A stretch of 64,000 bases of DNA from a bacterium (GTDB taxonomy: Bacteria > Electryoneota > JAOADG01): NCBI GenBank assembly GCA_963681965.1, contig OY820579.1, positions 2,880,001 through 2,944,000 on the forward strand. Reading direction: 5' to 3'. Shown here one piece after another: positions 448 through 8,011 of this stretch (position 1 is its first letter; each line of letters opens with the position of its first letter). The translations under genes were made by a program, and so were the position numbers. The notes under the pieces are model-generated. The model had not been told where the DNA came from and made no database searches. It saw nothing but the letters and a program-made list of their open reading frames with translations.

Positions 448-3201
448 TTATCCCGCTAACACCTTGTTCAATTCATCCATCACCCGTTGATAATCCTTGC
501 CAAACAATTCACTGAATTTGTAAATCCCACCCTTCAAATTGAAGGGAATGCTTTCAAAATCGTCTTCGGTAATTTCGATACTGGTTGCAATATGTTCTTT
601 GATCATCTGCAACCATTCTAACTGTTGGGGTGTAAAACTGCGACCCGACTGCTGTTGCTGTTGCAACCAATCGTGAAAGCGGTGTTCCACAATATCGATA
701 AATGGGGTTAAATCGTCTGCCATTCCACTGGTAAACTTCACCAGCGATACCAGATCGGTCAATACCGATTTCGGTTGTCCCTTCACCCTGCTGTGTTCCA
801 ATTGATCGTAACAATGCCACAAGCGTTCGGGAATAAATCCGTTCGGTGGTCGCTTGATGGTGTCGGCTAATTCCCTGATTGCATCGTAAGTCAGTTTCCG
901 TTTGCCGTAAGGTTGGCTGTACAATATCTGTAATGCCGTTATTTCATCGCGATGGTCTTGCAGGTACTGTTGCCACGATTGAACATACTGTTGGGCTGCT
1001 TCCTTCGCCTTGCTGTTGAACCCTGCTTCCAGCACGAAATCCTGCGATACGATGTCGATGGTCTGTTCAAGCAGTTGTTTCGTTTCAATCAGCAGATTGC
1101 GTAGTTTTGGATCGTGAAACGGTTTGGCAACAGTTTCCGCAAGTTCCCCTGTAACGATTTTCAGTTGTTCGACAGTGGGGTTATCGGTCGCAAATTTCTT
1201 GCAGGCTGTTTCTACCTGTACATCGGGATCGAAGGCTGTGAATAACGGCAGGATCAATTCAGTCATCGATGCCACACCTGCGACATCCTGAATACGTTTG
1301 CGGTCTTCCTTCGACAATTGCCGATCCATTTGCGCTAACCGATTGCCCAATGAAATCAGATAATCTTCTTCACGATTACCTGCAGCAATCGCAAGTAACA
1401 ACCTATCGAAGGGTATGGATTTCTTGCGTTCCAGTGGTCTGCTATCCCCTTTATCGCTTTCGCAGACACCAATTGCATCGACAATAACGAAATGGGTTTT
1501 GGCTTTCGCATCGGGTGACACTAATTGCAATGCGTTGCTATCGATGACCCTGGTGCCCCTTCCCTTCATCTGTTCGAAGTAAACTGCGGATTTGATGTCG
1601 CGCATGAATAACAGACATTCCAGCGGTTTGATATCGGTGCCTGTCGATATCATGTCGACCGTGACTGCGATGCGTGGGAAGTATTCGTTGCGAAATGCTG
1701 CGATCAAGGCTTCGGGGGTTTCACCCGTGGTTCTGTAAGTAATCTTCTTGGCAAAGTCTTTGCCCTTGCCGAATTCATCCCAGATAATATTCACGATATC
1801 TTCGGCATGACTATCGGTTTTGGCAAAGATTAAAGTCTTTGGTACTTCGGTTCGACCAGGGAAGATTTCCGTGAACAATTTATCGCGAAAGGTTTGGATT
1901 ACGGTGCGGATTTGATCGACCATGACAATATCTTTATCCAACTGGGTCGGGGCATAATATAAATCTTCATCCAACAGTTCGTAGCGTACTTTGCGGGTCA
2001 TCTTGTTGCGTTTATCGATGTATTCGCCCGCTTCGACTTTGCCACCTTTCACACTAGCATTCGTCTTAATCCGATACACTTCGTAACCGACATTCACCCC
2101 TTCGGCAATTGCGCGCTGATGGTTGAAATCCATCACCTGATTTTGTTTGAAGAACCCCAGGGTCTGCTTCGACGGCGTTGCCGTTAATCCAACAATGAAT
2201 GCATCGAAATAATCCAATACCTGTCGCCACTGGTTGTAGATGGATCGATGACATTCATCGGTAACAATAAAGTCGAACGCTTCAATCGGGATGGTGGGAT
2301 TATATTCAATAGGCTTGGGATCGTTGTCCAAGGTTAAATCGAAGGCAGAATGTTCATCCAATTCGGGATCGAATTCAGTTCCCTTCAACATCGAAAACAA
2401 GCGTTGGATTGTCGTGATTGTTACGTTGCAGACGGGATCGATGGTGTTCGATGACATCAATTGGATGTTGTACAGTTCAATGAATTTGCGGTGGTCGTCG
2501 GGGGTTTCGTACTTCTGAAATTCAGTCGATGCCTGAATGCCCAATGTTCTGCGATCCACCAGGAACAAGATATGTTTCGCACCAGCGAATTTGATCAACC
2601 GATAGATGAAACTTACTGCCAAAAAACTTTTTCCACTTCCAGTCGACATGCTGATCAATGCGCGTGGTTTGGATTTCGCAAAGCTGGCTTCCAGGTTCGT
2701 GATAGCTTCGATCTGACAATCACGCATTCCCTTGGTAATGATCGGGGGCATTTCGCGCATTCGGGCACGCAATGTGTTTGGTTCTTGTAGCCATTCGGCA
2801 AGCTTATCGGGTTTGTGGAAAGCGAATACTCCGCGAGGTCTACAGTCAGGATCGCGGATGTCGTAAAACATCGTTTCTTCACCTGTACTGACATAACCGA
2901 ACGTAAGTGCTTGCTTGGCAATGGGGATGTGCTTCAGTTTACTGCGAAGATAGCTATCGGTTTGATCGACCACGCCTGATAGTGTATCGCCCTTTTTCTT
3001 GGCTTCAATCACACCTACAGGGCTGCCTTTTACGAACAGAACATAGTCTACAAACCCAACATCGGTGGGATATTCGCGGACTGCAACCCCAGGAAAAGAC
3101 AAGTTTAATTCATCGATATTCTGTAGCTGCCAACCTGCTGCAGTCAACAGTTCATCAATCTTGTCGCGGGCTTCTTGTTCAGGTTTCTGTGGTTGTGGCA
3201 T
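448..3201 (-). CDS. hsdR: Type I restriction enzyme R subunit (EcoAI/EcoEI-like HsdR)
   Basis: N-terminal PD-(D/E)xK motif (VDYVL...IEAKK), Walker A STGSGKS, DECH box, GLTATP, QMKGRGTR, and an EcoEI-R-type C-terminal region (FTPQQLEWL...PF..KGG). Confidence 0.9.
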   Translation of the reverse strand: MPQPQKPEQEARDKIDELLTAAGWQLQNIDELNLSFPGVAVREYPTDVGFVDYVLFVKGSPVGVIEAKKKGDTLSGVVDQTDSYLRSKLKHIPIAKQALTFGYVSTGEETMFYDIRDPDCRPRGVFAFHKPDKLAEWLQEPNTLRARMREMPPIITKGMRDCQIEAITNLEASFAKSKPRALISMSTGSGKSFLAVSFIYRLIKFAGAKHILFLVDRRTLGIQASTEFQKYETPDDHRKFIELYNIQLMSSNTIDPVCNVTITTIQRLFSMLKGTEFDPELDEHSAFDLTLDNDPKPIEYNPTIPIEAFDFIVTDECHRSIYNQWRQVLDYFDAFIVGLTATPSKQTLGFFKQNQVMDFNHQRAIAEGVNVGYEVYRIKTNASVKGGKVEAGEYIDKRNKMTRKVRYELLDEDLYYAPTQLDKDIVMVDQIRTVIQTFRDKLFTEIFPGRTEVPKTLIFAKTDSHAEDIVNIIWDEFGKGKDFAKKITYRTTGETPEALIAAFRNEYFPRIAVTVDMISTGTDIKPLECLLFMRDIKSAVYFEQMKGRGTRVIDSNALQLVSPDAKAKTHFVIVDAIGVCESDKGDSRPLERKKSIPFDRLLLAIAAGNREEDYLISLGNRLAQMDRQLSKEDRKRIQDVAGVASMTELILPLFTAFDPDVQVETACKKFATDNPTVEQLKIVTGELAETVAKPFHDPKLRNLLIETKQLLEQTIDIVSQDFVLEAGFNSKAKEAAQQYVQSWQQYLQDHRDEITALQILYSQPYGKRKLTYDAIRELADTIKRPPNGFIPERLWHCYDQLEHSRVKGQPKSVLTDLVSLVKFTSGMADDLTPFIDIVEHRFHDWLQQQQQSGRSFTPQQLEWLQMIKEHIATSIEITEDDFESIPFNLKGGIYKFSELFGKDYQRVMDELNKVLAG

Positions 3202-3206
3202 AGAAA

Positions 3207-4193
3207 TTATACTGTCTTCAATTTTGGTGTAACGTCATTGAAATTTGGCTTTTGACCCACTATCCTAAGGTACATCCGAACGAAGACATTTTTTTCCAAC
3301 CATTGAAACCTTTTTTCATATGCTGCAACAATACTTAATTCATTTTCAGATAATGCGGAACATGATTGTTCTAATTTATGCAATTTGTTTTTAACTTCTT
3401 GAAACAACTGTTCTAACACCGCAATACGTGATGTGTTACTTGATAATTCAGTTACGAATTTAATCATCTTTGCTTTCACTTGATCCAGATCCCTTTCGAG
3501 TATGGTTAGTCTATTAATTGCATATGCGAAGTTCTTTTCAAGTTCCGTAAGATGTTTATTCGATTGATCAATTATTAAATTTAAAGTGTCAATCTTCTGC
3601 AGCACTTCAAGCAATTCGTTCTGAATTTGTTTGAATTTTAAATCGAAACTATCTGCCATCGTTTTTACATTATTTATTGTCTTTTTCAAAACATCATAGT
3701 TGTGTACTAAGTTGTCGCCTTCATGATCAGTTAGAAATGAAGCAAGTGCATCAAGACGATCCAACCTTGCTTTTATCACGGTAAAGTTGTCTTTTGATAC
3801 TTGTCCAAGTTCTTTCAGGATTTCGCTTTGTTCGTAAACAGCTTCATAGATACAGTGGGTAGATATTGCGGTTCGAAAAATCATTTCAGATGTTTCGGCT
3901 TGTGATTGAGACATCAATCTTTGGATTGAATATTCGCGTTTCTTGTCATCGTCGCTGAACCATTCACCAATTCTTTTCCAGATTGATAAATTTTCTGCTA
4001 CAGTTAAGTTAACATCAATAATCCTTGATTTGTCCACTATCGAAGAAATTAGTTCACGATTTCTTACAGCATTTTGTTTAAGTACTTCGACACGTTTTCC
4101 ATAGGACATAGCCAATTCAGCATCATGTTCAACTGCTTCCAAAACACTTGACCTGTATTCTACAATAGATTGAATTTCTTCATTGTATGACAT
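3207..4193 (-). CDS. Hypothetical helical/coiled-coil protein (328 aa)
   Basis: Long heptad-rich C-terminal half. TAATG stop/start overlap with the upstream gene and a 5-nt gap to hsdR. Confidence 0.8.
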   Translation of the reverse strand: MSYNEEIQSIVEYRSSVLEAVEHDAELAMSYGKRVEVLKQNAVRNRELISSIVDKSRIIDVNLTVAENLSIWKRIGEWFSDDDKKREYSIQRLMSQSQAETSEMIFRTAISTHCIYEAVYEQSEILKELGQVSKDNFTVIKARLDRLDALASFLTDHEGDNLVHNYDVLKKTINNVKTMADSFDLKFKQIQNELLEVLQKIDTLNLIIDQSNKHLTELEKNFAYAINRLTILERDLDQVKAKMIKFVTELSSNTSRIAVLEQLFQEVKNKLHKLEQSCSALSENELSIVAAYEKRFQWLEKNVFVRMYLRIVGQKPNFNDVTPKLKTV

Positions 4194-5194
4194 TAGAATA
4201 CCCCATCAGTAAATGTCGATTTCATGATCGCAACATTACTAGAAGTCAATAAATTATTTCTGTTTGTCTGGTCGTACACAAATTCTGCTTCGTCATTTAC
4301 TAATACTACAGCCTTATTAGCCTTTTCTGAAGCCTGTCGATTGAAACGAAATTCATCAGCAAACTTCTTATCCATTTGTGCTTGTACTTTCAATCTGTGA
4401 ATACTCTTCGACCACAGAAACCTAGCTGCCATCGAAGCAGGTACACTAACAAAGGGTGTGAAGGGTGCAAGAATAATATTCGTAATCGACCCAATCGCAG
4501 TTCCAGTAGCACGTTCAGCAACCATACTAATAATGTCTTCTGTCGAAGTTCCCTTGTTGTAGGCGTAGATCGCTGACACTAGAATTGCTGATGCTGCAAG
4601 ATATGGGAAGTGAAAGTTCACTTGATCCTGTGATCCATCTACTAACGTATTCATGTGTTGGTTAAGTTCATCGGTAGACATACCACTGTCAATGTAATTG
4701 ATACCATCGATGTGTTGTTCAACATGATCCGATGTCGTCAGTACATTATGAATTTCAGGATACTTGTCTGCATGTTCGTAGATATCTGATAAGTTCACCT
4801 TTGACTGAATATAATCAACGACATTGTGATCATGATCATAGATCACATAATCATAACCAGGTTGCGTTGCACTGTCGGCTAATTCAGCATGTAAACCGTC
4901 AGTAAGATGCTGGTTCAAGTTGTCTAGATTGTGAAGTTCGAAATACTTTCCTTCAATACCATTTAATGCCCCTTGCAAGCTATTAGGATCGTCTATTTTG
5001 GACTGAACAAAGTCAACAAGGCTTGTGTGTTCAGCAACATTCGGGTACTGCAGTTGAAAGGCTTGAACAAACAGTGGATCAAGTTTACCATCAGTGGCAT
5101 GTCCAGCAATAAATTCAGCAGTTTCCTGGGTGCCCAATAATATTGCATCGAATATCGATTGCGCTTCTTTTTTTTCCTTGGTTCTTGTGTCCAT
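4193..5194 (-). CDS. Hypothetical protein with a PD-(D/E)xK-like (QxK variant) motif and C-terminal hydrophobic helices
   Basis: GKYFE...QPGYD...IQSK pattern. Hydrophobic segments PYLAASAILVSAIYAY and AIGSITNIILAPFTPFVSVPASMAARFLW. Confidence 0.7.
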   Translation of the reverse strand: MDTRTKEKKEAQSIFDAILLGTQETAEFIAGHATDGKLDPLFVQAFQLQYPNVAEHTSLVDFVQSKIDDPNSLQGALNGIEGKYFELHNLDNLNQHLTDGLHAELADSATQPGYDYVIYDHDHNVVDYIQSKVNLSDIYEHADKYPEIHNVLTTSDHVEQHIDGINYIDSGMSTDELNQHMNTLVDGSQDQVNFHFPYLAASAILVSAIYAYNKGTSTEDIISMVAERATGTAIGSITNIILAPFTPFVSVPASMAARFLWSKSIHRLKVQAQMDKKFADEFRFNRQASEKANKAVVLVNDEAEFVYDQTNRNNLLTSSNVAIMKSTFTDGVF

Positions 5195-5214
5195 TTGGTT
5201 CGCCTTTGGTCAAC

Positions 5215-5252
5215 AAAAAAAACAACCCAACACTTTAACGTGCTGGGTTGTT
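5215..5252 (-). terminator. Intrinsic terminator immediately upstream of the island operon (possible attenuator)
   Basis: Minus strand AACAACCCAGCAC-GTTAAA-GTGTTGGGTTGTT followed by a T run. Confidence 0.8.
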
Positions 5253-5385
5253 CTGGTTACTATTCGAACAAGTACAAATAGACCGTACATGTAAGAATGT
5301 CATCAATCGATGACTTCGTGATCAAGATGGTTAGAAAAGCATCCCGAAATAACCAACTGTCACATTCAGATTATTTTACCCAGCA
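5215..5385 (-). ncRNA. Putative structured leader or small RNA (~170 nt)
   Basis: Bounded by a sigma70 promoter and a terminator. Helices TGCTGGGT/ACCCAGCA, GAATGT/ACATTC, TGGTTA/TAACCA and GTCATC/GATGAC. Confidence 0.45.
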
Positions 5386-5391
5386 AGCCTT

Positions 5392-5421
5392 AAGATATGA
5401 AACAAGTTAAAGCGTTGTCAA
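5392..5421 (-). promoter_or_regulatory. sigma70-type promoter for the leader and island operon
   Basis: TTGACA-N18-TATCTT on the minus strand just downstream of the integrase stop. Confidence 0.6.
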
Positions 5422-5432
5422 CAATTTATTGC

Positions 5433-6524
5433 CTACAAAGCAATTCTATTGACCGTTTCCCTAAGACTTTCTGGCTGCAAGTGGGCATAGAACTTTTCAG
5501 TCGTACTGACTGTAGTGTGTCCAAGAAGTTTGGCTATGTGGTAAATCGACACACCATCTGCAGCAAGCCACGATGCACACGAATGACGTAATGAATGGAA
5601 GTGTAGCTTGTCGTCTAGACCAAGCTTCCTGATGTATTGTTTCAGCTTATGGGTCGCCCAGTACCCACTAATTGCCTTACCATCATCCATTCGAAACACC
5701 AATCCATCATTCAACAAGTCACGTCGTTTCTGTAGCAACAAACAAGCTGCTTCACCTAATGGAATTGTTCGCTGCTTTCCCTGTTTCGTTTGATAGTTTT
5801 CACTGCTTTGGATGTGAACCCAACGTTTATTCATGTCCACTTGTTGCCAGGACAAGTTAATAATTTCACCCCTTCTTAAACCTGTCAGTATTGCGAATAG
5901 GACAACATCACGTAACCACAGTTCATTAATCGCTTCAAACAACTTCTGGAAGTCATCCTGCCCGAAAAACGTTTTCGTACATTCAGCAACACGAACAAAA
6001 GGAATATTCTTGAAAGGATTGCTTTCAATCCATCCCCAGTTCATTGCAATTGTAAAAGCTGATCGAAGGGTTCGAAGTTCCAGGTTTACAGTTACAGGCT
6101 TCACCTGGGTTATGCGAAGGGTTTTGTATGTGTCGATGTTGTGTTTATTGACACTACCTATCCTAATGTTACCAACTGCATTCTGAAATGCCATGAATGC
6201 ATAATGAAATAGATCGATAGTGCCTTTGGTGTAATTGGATACGCCATTCTTCAGGAATTCTTCCTGAAATTCTGTTAGCGTACGATGTGATTTGGGACGT
6301 TTATGAATTTTTTCGAAGGAAGTCAAAACCTTTAATGCTTCTGACTTCTTCGTACAACGGGTGGTCTTCCACTGCGTCTTTCCATCATCACTTTGCGAAA
6401 GGATATACCAGACACCGTTCGCCCGACGGAATAGACTTAAATGATTTGGACTAGACATTGCTTTTCCATTAGCAATGCCATTAGCACTATTGAATTTCGT
6501 GTTCGGAACTATAGCATCTATCAA
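5433..6524 (-). CDS. Tyrosine recombinase / phage-type integrase (likely start ATG at 6458)
   Basis: Catalytic motifs TGLRRGE, HSLRH and LLGH...TEKFYAH. N-terminal beta-rich arm-binding-like segment (LFRRANGVWYI). Confidence 0.93.
   Translation of the reverse strand: MIDAIVPNTKFNSANGIANGKAMSSPNHLSLFRRANGVWYILSQSDDGKTQWKTTRCTKKSEALKVLTSFEKIHKRPKSHRTLTEFQEEFLKNGVSNYTKGTIDLFHYAFMAFQNAVGNIRIGSVNKHNIDTYKTLRITQVKPVTVNLELRTLRSAFTIAMNWGWIESNPFKNIPFVRVAECTKTFFGQDDFQKLFEAINELWLRDVVLFAILTGLRRGEIINLSWQQVDMNKRWVHIQSSENYQTKQGKQRTIPLGEAACLLLQKRRDLLNDGLVFRMDDGKAISGYWATHKLKQYIRKLGLDDKLHFHSLRHSCASWLAADGVSIYHIAKLLGHTTVSTTEKFYAHLQPESLRETVNRIAL
6466..6486. repeat. Direct repeat CCATTAGCA x2, candidate integrase arm-type sites
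   Basis: Exact 9-mers at 6466-6474 and 6478-6486, between the tRNA fragment and the integrase ATG. Confidence 0.45.
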
Positions 6525-6543
6525 GACTTAGCTGTGTATCATC

Positions 6544-6587
6544 CTAGACCCCCAGTCTAGTGCGCTACCAGGCTGCGCCACGTCCCG
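6544..6587 (-). tRNA. tRNA-Pro(GGG), 5' fragment only (att junction)
   Basis: CGGGACG-TG-GCGCAGCCTGGTAGCGC-A-CTAGA-CTGGGGG-TCTAG gives the acceptor 5' strand, D arm and anticodon arm. No T arm or 3' acceptor strand follows. Confidence 0.85.
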
Positions 6588-6600
6588 TTGTGCAAAGCGA

Positions 6601-6629
6601 AAGATAGTGTTTCGAATCGACTAATTCAA
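6601..6629 (-). promoter_or_regulatory. sigma70-type promoter of the tRNA-Pro locus
   Basis: TTGAAT-N17-TATCTT ending 13 nt upstream of the tRNA 5' end. Confidence 0.6.
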
Positions 6630-6680
6630 GTCAGACCGAAATCGATGGCATTTTGAACCGATTCACTCCTTTCAGATCGA

Positions 6681-7904
6681 TTAATTCCTCGCCGTTACCC
6701 GATAGTATCGCTTGGGTTGTGACGACGAACGAACGATCGAGGTATCGGATCCAGTCCACACCGAGGAAAAATTCGTCGACCAGAAATTCGGGATCGAATC
6801 GGCTTCGAATACCGAATAACTAGTAGCTCGACTGACACTCTGCCAACTCAACCGCATATTCTGAGCATCGATCTGGGTAATCGAAAGTACCGGAGATGCT
6901 GGCGGTGTTGGTGGTGTAGCTGGTCTGGTGGTGAATTTTGCCATTACTGGAAGATGATCGGATGCCCAATAAATTGCTCTCGCCACTGTCTGCGGCACAG
7001 AGGTATTCGTCGTTGTGTCGATTAATGTATTAAAAAAATTGCCACTCTGACCGATCGTTACAAAACTGTTGGGCACATACTGGATACCAACTGTGTCGCG
7101 CATCCCTTCGGAGTAGAGCAGAAAATCGAAGCGATCATCGCAACCACCCGATGCGCCACCACCAAATTGTGCATAGCGAGGACTTTGCGTATGGAGATAG
7201 GCAAAAGCAGCACCATCATGCCATACACCGCCATTGGCTAGTGAACCGGGTGCCAAAGGATCGATCAATCGACCCTGTCGATTGGCAGTCGAATCGAGTA
7301 AAAGTGTAAACGCTGCCTCAGTGGCTCGATATAAATTGAGGTCGCCTGTCATGATAAAATCTTGACCCAATGGAAATCGATTCAATGAATCGCGCAATAT
7401 TTGTGCTTCACCTGCTCGTTGAAGCGCTTCAGCTGTTCCATCGCTTGCTTTTAAGTGTGCTTCGTACATCCGCAATCGATTATTCCCAACAACAGTATGA
7501 AGATTGTATTCGACGATGTCGCGCAGTACCGTCGGAAAATACCGCGAAGAATCATACACGAATTTCGAAGTGCGATAACACATCCCCGGATCGGAGTCGG
7601 GACCATCGTGAAAAGGTGCCATCGCGTATTGACCGGGAAAAACTGCATTCAATACCGAGTCGCGAAATAGTTGCAGCGCTGCAGACGAACCGACTTCATC
7701 GACCGTAATCAAATCGGGTGACATATAAGCAAGGACAGTGCGGAAATGTGGTAAACGCGAAGTAGTGGCGGAACTTCCGGAATTAAATTGCAACAGCGAA
7801 TAAGTACCAATTCGCAACGTGTCGATTTGTGCAAAGGCGACAACCGGTAAACCCGATAACACGACAGTTACCGATAAGACAATAAGAAATGAACGCTTCA
7901 ACAT
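6681..7904 (-). CDS. Secreted endonuclease/exonuclease/phosphatase (EEP) family protein with an FN3-like C-terminus
   Basis: Signal peptide; HLKAS, GDLN, DRFD and SDHLPV motifs; Pro-rich linker followed by LSW...Y...YYRVTA. Confidence 0.8.
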   Translation of the reverse strand: MLKRSFLIVLSVTVVLSGLPVVAFAQIDTLRIGTYSLLQFNSGSSATTSRLPHFRTVLAYMSPDLITVDEVGSSAALQLFRDSVLNAVFPGQYAMAPFHDGPDSDPGMCYRTSKFVYDSSRYFPTVLRDIVEYNLHTVVGNNRLRMYEAHLKASDGTAEALQRAGEAQILRDSLNRFPLGQDFIMTGDLNLYRATEAAFTLLLDSTANRQGRLIDPLAPGSLANGGVWHDGAAFAYLHTQSPRYAQFGGGASGGCDDRFDFLLYSEGMRDTVGIQYVPNSFVTIGQSGNFFNTLIDTTTNTSVPQTVARAIYWASDHLPVMAKFTTRPATPPTPPASPVLSITQIDAQNMRLSWQSVSRATSYSVFEADSIPNFWSTNFSSVWTGSDTSIVRSSSQPKRYYRVTARN

Positions 7905-8011
7905 GTGAACTACTTCTTTCTAAGGCAAAAGCTACAAATGCGTGAAAAAAAGGTGAAACAATATATACTATTCATCGACATAGAAAAAATGAAGTTGAAT
8001 GGGCGAGAGTC

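Follow-up and report, generated by a model that had tools for sequence, protein, structure and literature searches.

A candidate transcription attenuator ahead of an orphan two-gene cassette in a tRNA-Pro island

In this study, a stretch of 64,000 nt from a bacterium of the GTDB lineage Electryoneota was analyzed (contig OY820579.1, assembly GCA_963681965.1, positions 2,880,001 to 2,944,000). This whole stretch is hereafter named the window, and coordinates are positions within it unless stated otherwise. We focused on a gap of 238 nt (5432..5195, minus strand, as are all genes around it), located between the tyrosine integrase gene of an island and P0001, the first of two cargo genes, P0001 and P0002, which precede the type I restriction subunit gene hsdR. 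The gap contains a candidate promoter, a leader of about 174 nt and a terminator. Our favoured reading, which we hold tentatively, is that of a cis-acting leader, or attenuator, which may well throttle the PD-(D/E)xK-like gene P0001 and perhaps hsdR. The elements of the gap are the following.

5392..5421, minus strand: candidate sigma-70-like promoter TTGACA-N18-TATCTT, 10/12 match, predicted +1 near 5385
5403..5417, minus strand: outer complementary segment CAACGCUUUAACUUG, pairing with the terminator loop and 3' arm (5242..5228) at 13/15 positions (87%)
5378..5385, minus strand: 5' strand of the putative closing helix P1 (antiterminator), RNA UGCUGGGU, 100% complementary to 5248..5241
5255..5377, minus strand: inner leader domain with alternative folds, including a perfect hairpin GUCAUC-GAUU-GAUGAC at 5314..5299
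ATG at 5303, TAA at 5237..5235 in the terminator loop, minus strand: 22-codon open reading frame (ORF) lacking a Shine-Dalgarno sequence, its ATG inside the hairpin 5314..5299
5211..5254, minus strand: predicted intrinsic terminator, hairpin 5254..5219 with a 15-bp stem and a 6-nt GUUAAA loop, then U8

According to the mechanism we favour, the gap would hold the promoter and 5' leader of the cassette P0001-P0002, set between the integrase gene and hsdR. Transcription would start near 5385, cross the leader, and meet a strong terminator just before the first cargo gene. The first eight bases of the RNA, UGCUGGGU, would pair with ACCCAGCA and close the leader into a single domain. Because this P1 helix would occupy all but one base of the loop-proximal 5' arm of the terminator, nucleation of the hairpin would be hindered; once the 3' arm is made, the terminator would be the more stable form, by about 10 kcal/mol. 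The fraction of read-through would be set by this kinetic race, which stabilising or opening the 5' helix would shift. As a result, a nuclease-like and probably harmful protein, possibly together with the type I restriction genes, would be kept low or conditional. In this scheme, we infer where transcription starts, that polymerases do terminate or read through, and that some signal may shift the balance.

Promoter and terminator of the leader

A preliminary description of this DNA had placed a promoter TTGACA-N18-TATCTT in the gap, with a start at about 5385. Such a site is present on the minus strand, and its 10/12 match is rare: sites of at least 10/12 number 846 in the genome, both strands included, with 0.024 expected per 238 nt on one strand. 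A looser promoter rule was uninformative (2 sites in 900 nt, versus 2.1 in shuffled sequences). We also looked at the signals that this organism appears to use. Shine-Dalgarno sequences are employed, AGGAG and GGAGG peaking just before start codons. Upstream of genes, TATCTT and TATATT are enriched 2.6- and 5.9-fold, and the combination TTGAC-N17-20-TAnnnT is about 5 times denser than genome-wide. A promoter of the Bacteroidota type (-7/-33), suspected from a nearby protein with a type IX secretion system tail, was rejected: TAnnTTTG is not enriched, and Shine-Dalgarno sequences are used. A sigma-70-type promoter at 5421..5392 is therefore plausible.

The strong terminator announced some 20 nt before the first cargo ATG was found as well, with 15 bp and U8, a hairpin energy of -23.3 kcal/mol, and a U-tract ending 17 nt before the ATG of P0001 (5194). 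The P0001 ORF cannot start earlier because an in-frame TGA lies 18 nt before this ATG. By reading of the sequence, no promoter fits between the terminator and the ATG, a TTGACC found after the U-tract having no -10 at allowed spacings. With only 17 nt left after the U-tract, too few to hold a promoter, polymerases reaching the first cargo gene must, as judged from the sequence, all pass through the terminator.

Its position is unusual. The hairpin lies 178 nt past the integrase stop, with no other terminator between this stop and 5254. For calibration, 346 terminators were predicted among the 1270 co-directional gaps of the genome, with a median distance of 33.5 nt from the stop. A leader-type geometry, defined as 100 nt or more between the preceding stop and the terminator and no more than 40 nt between the terminator and the following start, was found for only 19 of the 346, and the present hairpin is the most stable of these 19. 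Among the other 18, Rfam detected a flavin mononucleotide (FMN) riboswitch (112 bits), two tRNA genes, and a PyrR-site match which, at 47.9 bits (E 2e-4), is under its gathering score of 54. A loose terminator scan returned 1 match, versus 0.8 in shuffles.

Pairing and folding of the leader RNA

The 8-mer at the predicted RNA start (5385..5378, TGCTGGGT as DNA) had been said to be perfectly complementary to the terminator 5' arm. The complementarity to 5248..5241, which lies inside this arm and is the 3' strand of P1, is indeed 100%. All pairs of P1 are Watson-Crick, whereas the corresponding part of the terminator stem includes a G-U pair. The outer segment overlaps the promoter spacer, and would be present only in transcripts begun upstream, for instance by read-through from the integrase gene. 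The complementarity thus reaches further than had been described: the upstream region can cover 21 contiguous nt of the terminator, from the upper 5' arm through the loop to halfway along the 3' arm. P1 and the outer segment form one bulge-interrupted helix (12 bp + 8 bp) of -26.9 kcal/mol.

A perfect complement of at least 8 nt to the 5' arm was found in 136/5000 dinucleotide shuffles of the upstream 176 nt. The duplex energy was reached by 15/2000 shuffles, and by 14/3000 GC-matched natural windows of this genome. An upstream-to-hairpin duplex test was then applied to all 19 leader-type terminators and to 45 randomly sampled ordinary ones, with 120 shuffles each. The present site scored z -2.7 (1/120 shuffles as good), and the PyrR leader, taken as positive control, z -4.1. 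The 45 ordinary terminators ranged from z -2.0 to +1.5, all weaker than this site.

Folding was examined at several lengths. The region 5386..5210 folds at -56.1 kcal/mol (z -4.8), and for 5385..5241 a single domain is obtained, with the 8-bp helix closing it (-43.7 kcal/mol, z -4.0). The inner helices listed in the preliminary description (GAATGT/ACATTC, TGGTTA/TAACCA and GTCATC/GATGAC) are all in the sequence and are used in computed folds. Overall, two differing minimum-energy folds were obtained, and the inner part alone adopts the GAAUGU/ACAUUC one. In transcripts starting at 5385, the probability of P1 is 0.95 once its 3' strand exists, and until 4 nt of the terminator 3' arm are out; after 8 nt of this arm it is 0.008. 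In transcripts starting at 5432, P1 is kept until 8 nt of the 3' arm (0.955) and lost by 12 nt (0.003). With both conformers folded in silico, the two structures come out as mutually exclusive, as had been proposed: the 5' helix is the first to form, and gives way to the terminator once the 3' arm of the latter has been transcribed. In these models, the two-state behaviour looks like that of a kinetic terminator/antiterminator device.

Within the inner domain, the 22-codon ORF (5303..5235) recalls the layout of pyrBI-type coupling, as a ribosome translating it and stopping at the TAA in the terminator loop would mask the hairpin. This leader-peptide scheme is scarcely credible: the ORF lacks a Shine-Dalgarno sequence in a genome that clearly uses them, its ATG is buried in the perfect hairpin 5314..5299, and it has no relatives on which conservation of the peptide could be judged.

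Antiterminator-type attenuators are exemplified by the PyrR-controlled pyr leader, and by ON-type riboswitches such as the adenine pbuE/ydhL leader. As in these, the predicted elements found here are a promoter, a long leader, a terminator just before the first gene, and an upstream segment whose pairing excludes the terminator fold; the PyrR-site leader of the same genome scores similarly in the duplex test. On in silico grounds, three hallmarks of the class, i.e. an upstream promoter, a terminator before the start codon and an excluding alternative helix, are present. The differences are that no protein-binding repeats, conserved aptamer or Rfam family was identified here as a sensor, that the predicted RNA begins directly with the antiterminator strand, and that the genes controlled would be cargo of a mobile island rather than metabolic genes. 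The kind of device is a known one, and this instance is new and orphan. A likeness also exists with conjugation operons, as presented in PMC8955417, in that a terminator at the head of an operon could insulate the cargo from outside or integrase transcription. In the systems treated there, processive antitermination factors act on several terminators, whereas here a single terminator would be opposed by a local, self-encoded helix.

If the switch works, expression of a defence cassette, and possibly of a type I restriction subunit, would be gated at the RNA level, and this would show that a promoter, leader and terminator can move as one unit with a defence cassette. To our knowledge, type I systems are regulated post-translationally rather than by attenuation, and our literature search found no paper tying hsdR or type I restriction-modification to attenuation. 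Coming from a single orphan sequence of an uncultured lineage, the leader is of value as a well-defined and cheap-to-test candidate, rather than as an established new class.

Relatives of the leader and competing readings

We searched for relatives of the leader on several scales, the genomes compared being 79 for the phylum and 4 for the family. An Rfam scan of 4000..8000 (E up to 10) returned no family at its gathering score, in line with the earlier remark that the RNA is not a recognisable riboswitch; the best match in the region was RT-6, with 17.5 bits versus a gathering score of 46.7 (E 2.1). No homologue of the leader was found in its own genome by BLAST and nhmmer, in the other 3 genomes of the family, in plasmids and phages by distant blastn, or by nhmmer at 29 loci with integrase relatives. 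The sole extra match in its own genome (genome positions 534774-534957, E 0.042) is due to a terminator hairpin resembling the present one. A covariance model built on the single sequence retrieved only the query and terminator-like hairpins from the 79 genomes of the phylum, and a strict three-block pattern had 0 matches in genome contigs and 0 in viral contigs. Over the positions that they cover, contigs of 4 DNA runs match the window exactly, with no variants (one run has no cover at 5355..5451, and another none at 4579..5451). They showed no joints either, which is a weak test, being limited to contigs.

Two other candidates were rejected. A miniature inverted-repeat transposable element, or another repeat element, has no other copy in this genome. 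A retron was discarded, as no reverse transcriptase domain was found in the six neighbouring proteins or in 13 further island proteins.

A riboswitch of a new class would be ON-type, a small molecule stabilising the P1-closed domain and turning the operon on. We regard it as highly improbable: apart from the lack of an Rfam match, the inner domain has a weak and ambiguous structure, the leader is a single copy without relatives, and the downstream genes are neither metabolic nor transport genes. It does share with ON-type transcriptional riboswitches the overlap of the P1 3' strand with the terminator 5' arm, and its leader-type geometry is also seen for the FMN riboswitch of this genome.

Several observations weigh against an attenuator. 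First, the leader is without conservation or covariation support, as no homologue emerged from any of the sequence searches. Second, a weaker promoter-like site, TTCATA-17-TAAAAT (9/12), would start the RNA downstream of the 8-mer. Third, the inner 123 nt alone (5377..5255) reach only z -1.9, with 9/200 shuffles as good and a different fold; the overall fold thus owes its significance to the closing helix and the terminator rather than to a well-defined inner structure. Moreover, the reverse strand folds as well as the forward one (z -4.4). At equilibrium, the full-length terminator form always beats the forced antiterminator (-57.3 versus -46.6 kcal/mol), and this also holds for the long transcript (-67.6 versus -60.0 kcal/mol). 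The outer segment lies within the promoter and cannot be in RNA made from that promoter, and it fits an inverted duplication at the DNA level as well as an RNA device. As for the duplex test, it lacks both sensitivity and specificity: the FMN riboswitch reached only z -0.9, and the top score (z -6.5, genome 3713253-3713540) came from a tandem hairpin array that is no attenuator. Finally, every statistic was computed after the feature had been chosen in the preliminary description.

In the array just mentioned (L078 1330-1545, genome ~3713330-3713545, plus strand), a 40-nt unit comprising the hairpin GCGGACUUUAGUCCGC and a U-rich tail is repeated about five times in tandem, and a GC-rich hairpin comes next. 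The predicted fold has an energy of -80 kcal/mol (z -7.3), Rfam returned nothing at E<=0.1, and a 138-amino-acid (aa) ORF lies behind the array. From its sequence it looks like stacked terminators or an array resembling repetitive extragenic palindromic elements.

A plainer account is that the hairpin is the integrase terminator, placed after a long 3' untranslated region and insulating the cargo, the promoter match and the complementarity being due to chance or being by-products of insertion. The cargo would then be expressed only by leak, or hsdR from its own promoter. This account, the leading rival, is somewhat unlikely in our opinion. The distance of 178 nt from the stop is at odds with the genome median, and with the 6 nt seen in the nearest related island; the promoter site is rare, and so is the complementarity, which exceeds that of all 45 ordinary terminators tested. 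It is however what the loose promoter and terminator scans would suggest, both being no better than shuffles. The lack of conservation, the inner domain that is not significantly structured, the 10/12 promoter-like site directly before hsdR (see below), and the absence of any other terminator after the integrase stop all point the same way.

The attenuation switch of the preliminary description can be retained in part. Its architecture is real, statistically unusual and two-state in silico; that it is itself regulated, and by what, is the part for which nothing was found. A role in delaying expression after transfer, as suggested there, would be speculative.

Cassette, cargo proteins and island

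The genes and boundary around the leader are listed below.

5433..6524, minus strand: tyrosine integrase of the island (Phage_integrase, E 1e-34), its stop 178 nt before the terminator hairpin
4193..5194, minus strand: P0001, first cargo gene, 333 aa, ATG at 5194, with a PD-(D/E)xK-like core and hydrophobic C-terminal helices
3207..4193, minus strand: P0002, second cargo gene, 328 aa, a coiled-coil orphan
448..3201, minus strand: hsdR, type I restriction subunit, starting 5 nt after P0002
6543..6592, minus strand: island boundary repeat of 50 nt, identical to the first 45 nt of tRNA-Pro(GGG) and the 5 nt ahead of them (by alignment and ARAGORN)

The integrase has no close relative in genome contigs. 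Its nearest relative, 51% identical, belongs to G003, a genome of the same family but of another genus. Homology between the two islands, for DNA and translated sequence alike, runs to the integrase stop (5433) and resumes at 3202, one base before the hsdR ATG. The G003 integrase-hsdR junction has no leader, P0001 or P0002, and its integrase terminator lies 6 nt after the stop, so that a distant terminator is not usual for this integrase family. Leader, P0001 and P0002 together span 2230 bp, with a G+C content of 0.36-0.40, versus 0.47 for the genome. Because G003 homology breaks around them and their G+C is low, they are, on this sequence comparison, an inserted orphan cassette in a variable spot. 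At the same junction, G003 has a different insert, a single gene of 214 aa on the opposite strand (L053, G003:C121, 12590-13332); the integrase-hsdR junction therefore behaves as a cassette hotspot.

This breakpoint raises the question of a feature acting at the DNA level, i.e. an inverted duplication, a junction scar left by cassette entry, or a recombination site, devoid of RNA function. The upstream block resembles the terminator apex in reverse complement, interrupted by a 17-nt insertion; the 8-nt direct repeat TTGTTGAC occurs on either side of the region (5424..5417 and 5216..5209); homology to G003 breaks off precisely at the integrase stop and is regained 1 nt ahead of the hsdR ATG; and a tyrosine recombinase gene adjoins. 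We nonetheless consider such a feature very unlikely. The blocks have no other genomic copy at up to 4, 2 and 2 mismatches, nor by nhmmer, and the repeat and inverted blocks lie at unmatched distances from the ends, with no clean pattern of terminal repeats or target duplication. For an invertible promoter, the picture is mixed: inverted blocks do exist, but the promoter overlaps the left one instead of being enclosed by them, and no plus-strand promoter-like site was found in 4900..5800 that an inversion could switch on. The contigs of the 4 runs showed no joints, a weak test as noted above.

Returning to the attenuator reading, the nature of P0001 is relevant. It has no match among Pfam, PADLOC, NCBIfam or PHROG models, including ToxN/AbiQ. 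Its family is unnamed and counts 415 representatives at E<=0.001, the closest being P0004 and P0005 (37% and 35% identical), with the signature GK..E ... SATQPGYD ... QxK. Many members are extended at the N terminus by about 170 aa rich in Gly/Ala. Twenty relatives from metagenomes lie in other contexts, most of them being about 480 aa long with the N-terminal extension, and at none of these 20 loci does the gene adjoin a relative of the integrase, of P0002, of hsdR or of the 453-aa protein encoded left of the window. In an alignment of 44 sequences, G82, K83, E86, D115 and K132 are invariant, and Q130 is present in at least 90%. An AlphaFold model computed from these 44 sequences had a pLDDT (predicted local distance difference test) of 88.4. 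Foldseek placed restriction endonucleases as top matches, with a best E of only 0.013. VIA-align matched residues 32-190 to PD-(D/E)xK nucleases (PA-N endonuclease, Z 6.2-6.4; BsaWI, 5.8; AgeI, 5.5), values below the safe level of the tool, which warns that they can be generic. The C-terminal helices align with channel-like helical chains (Z 8.3). E86, D115, Q130 and K132 may be read as a nuclease catalytic motif. On this reading, a tightly throttled and potentially harmful product is plausible. P0002 has no relative other than itself, and only weak coiled-coil matches.

Could the RNA act on P0001 in trans instead? In this scheme, a stand-alone RNA of about 174 nt would serve as a type III-like RNA antitoxin or cofactor, made in large amounts from the promoter with little leakage through the terminator into P0001, and would restrain the protein until transcription is shut off, for instance by a phage. 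According to PMC10511110, a Rho-independent terminator typically lies between the two genes of type III loci, and AvcI is the non-coding RNA antitoxin of a defence system, with no terminator predicted between avcI and avcD. The order found here, i.e. promoter, structured RNA, Rho-independent terminator and effector, is the usual type III layout, and the context is one of defence, as for the type III toxin-antitoxin systems ToxIN and AvcID; the terminator would set the RNA:protein ratio. Two further points suit this scheme, namely the nuclease-like core of P0001, in which acidic and lysine residues are invariant, and its location in a defence island next to type I restriction-modification genes. 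We judge it unlikely all the same, since the leader differs from type III RNAs in having no tandem repeats (0 arrays in 5100..5500 at a minimum score of 30), and P0001 is unrelated to ToxN/AbiQ or AvcD and has no other PADLOC match. The upstream region was read for 9/20 loci with P0001 relatives, and none of these 9 had a comparable RNA and terminator; at the nearest two, a small coding gene lies upstream instead. In addition, pairing of the RNA 5' end with a terminator arm is a feature of cis switches, unnecessary in trans. A combined scheme may also be envisaged, which we hold to be quite improbable. The ~174-nt RNA would be both cis gate and trans partner, serving a new family of membrane-associated PD-(D/E)xK nucleases as a sensor or as a type III-like antitoxin without repeats, in a self-contained cassette of the integrase-hsdR hotspot of the tRNA-Pro island that would also drive the restriction subunit.

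At the end of P0002, a promoter-like site GTTACA-16-TATAAT (10/12) is found before hsdR (3233..3206, minus strand); its -10 overlaps the P0002 stop, and the site ends 4 nt before the hsdR ATG. This site could yield a near-leaderless hsdR transcript independent of the leader. Because of it, control of restriction by the leader is, as far as the sequence goes, a weaker case than control of P0001. The statement that the leader stands in front of the defence operon must be qualified accordingly: the leader is upstream of the cargo, but the two genes directly behind it are an orphan cassette, and hsdR has a site of its own.

Left of the window, on the same strand and with no real gaps, come ORFs of 453 and 307 aa, hsdS, a PD-(D/E)xK-like ORF and hsdM. 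At the far end of the island, the intact tRNA-Pro (genome 2868640-2868714, L002 8714..8640) lies about 17.8 kb from the partial copy. This partial copy adjoins the integrase gene; it therefore seems that the element brings along and supplies the 5' half of the tRNA, a less usual arrangement. Metagenome contig depth rises to 350-760x at 6519-6615, where the loose ends look like tRNA T-arms of other organisms; the spike is due to foreign contigs recruited by the conserved tRNA half, and is no copy-number signal. A second integrase gene, whose product is 40% identical, directly follows the intact tRNA, which indicates two elements in tandem at one tRNA. Beyond hsdM, a 930-nt gap is followed by primase-type genes. 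Within L002 9195-14036, left of the window, the island encodes a primase of the archaeo-eukaryotic type (AEP; PF22548, E 7e-11) and a primase-polymerase-like protein (phrog_13901, E 4e-59), which suggests that the element is a replicative integrative one, rather than a passive island.

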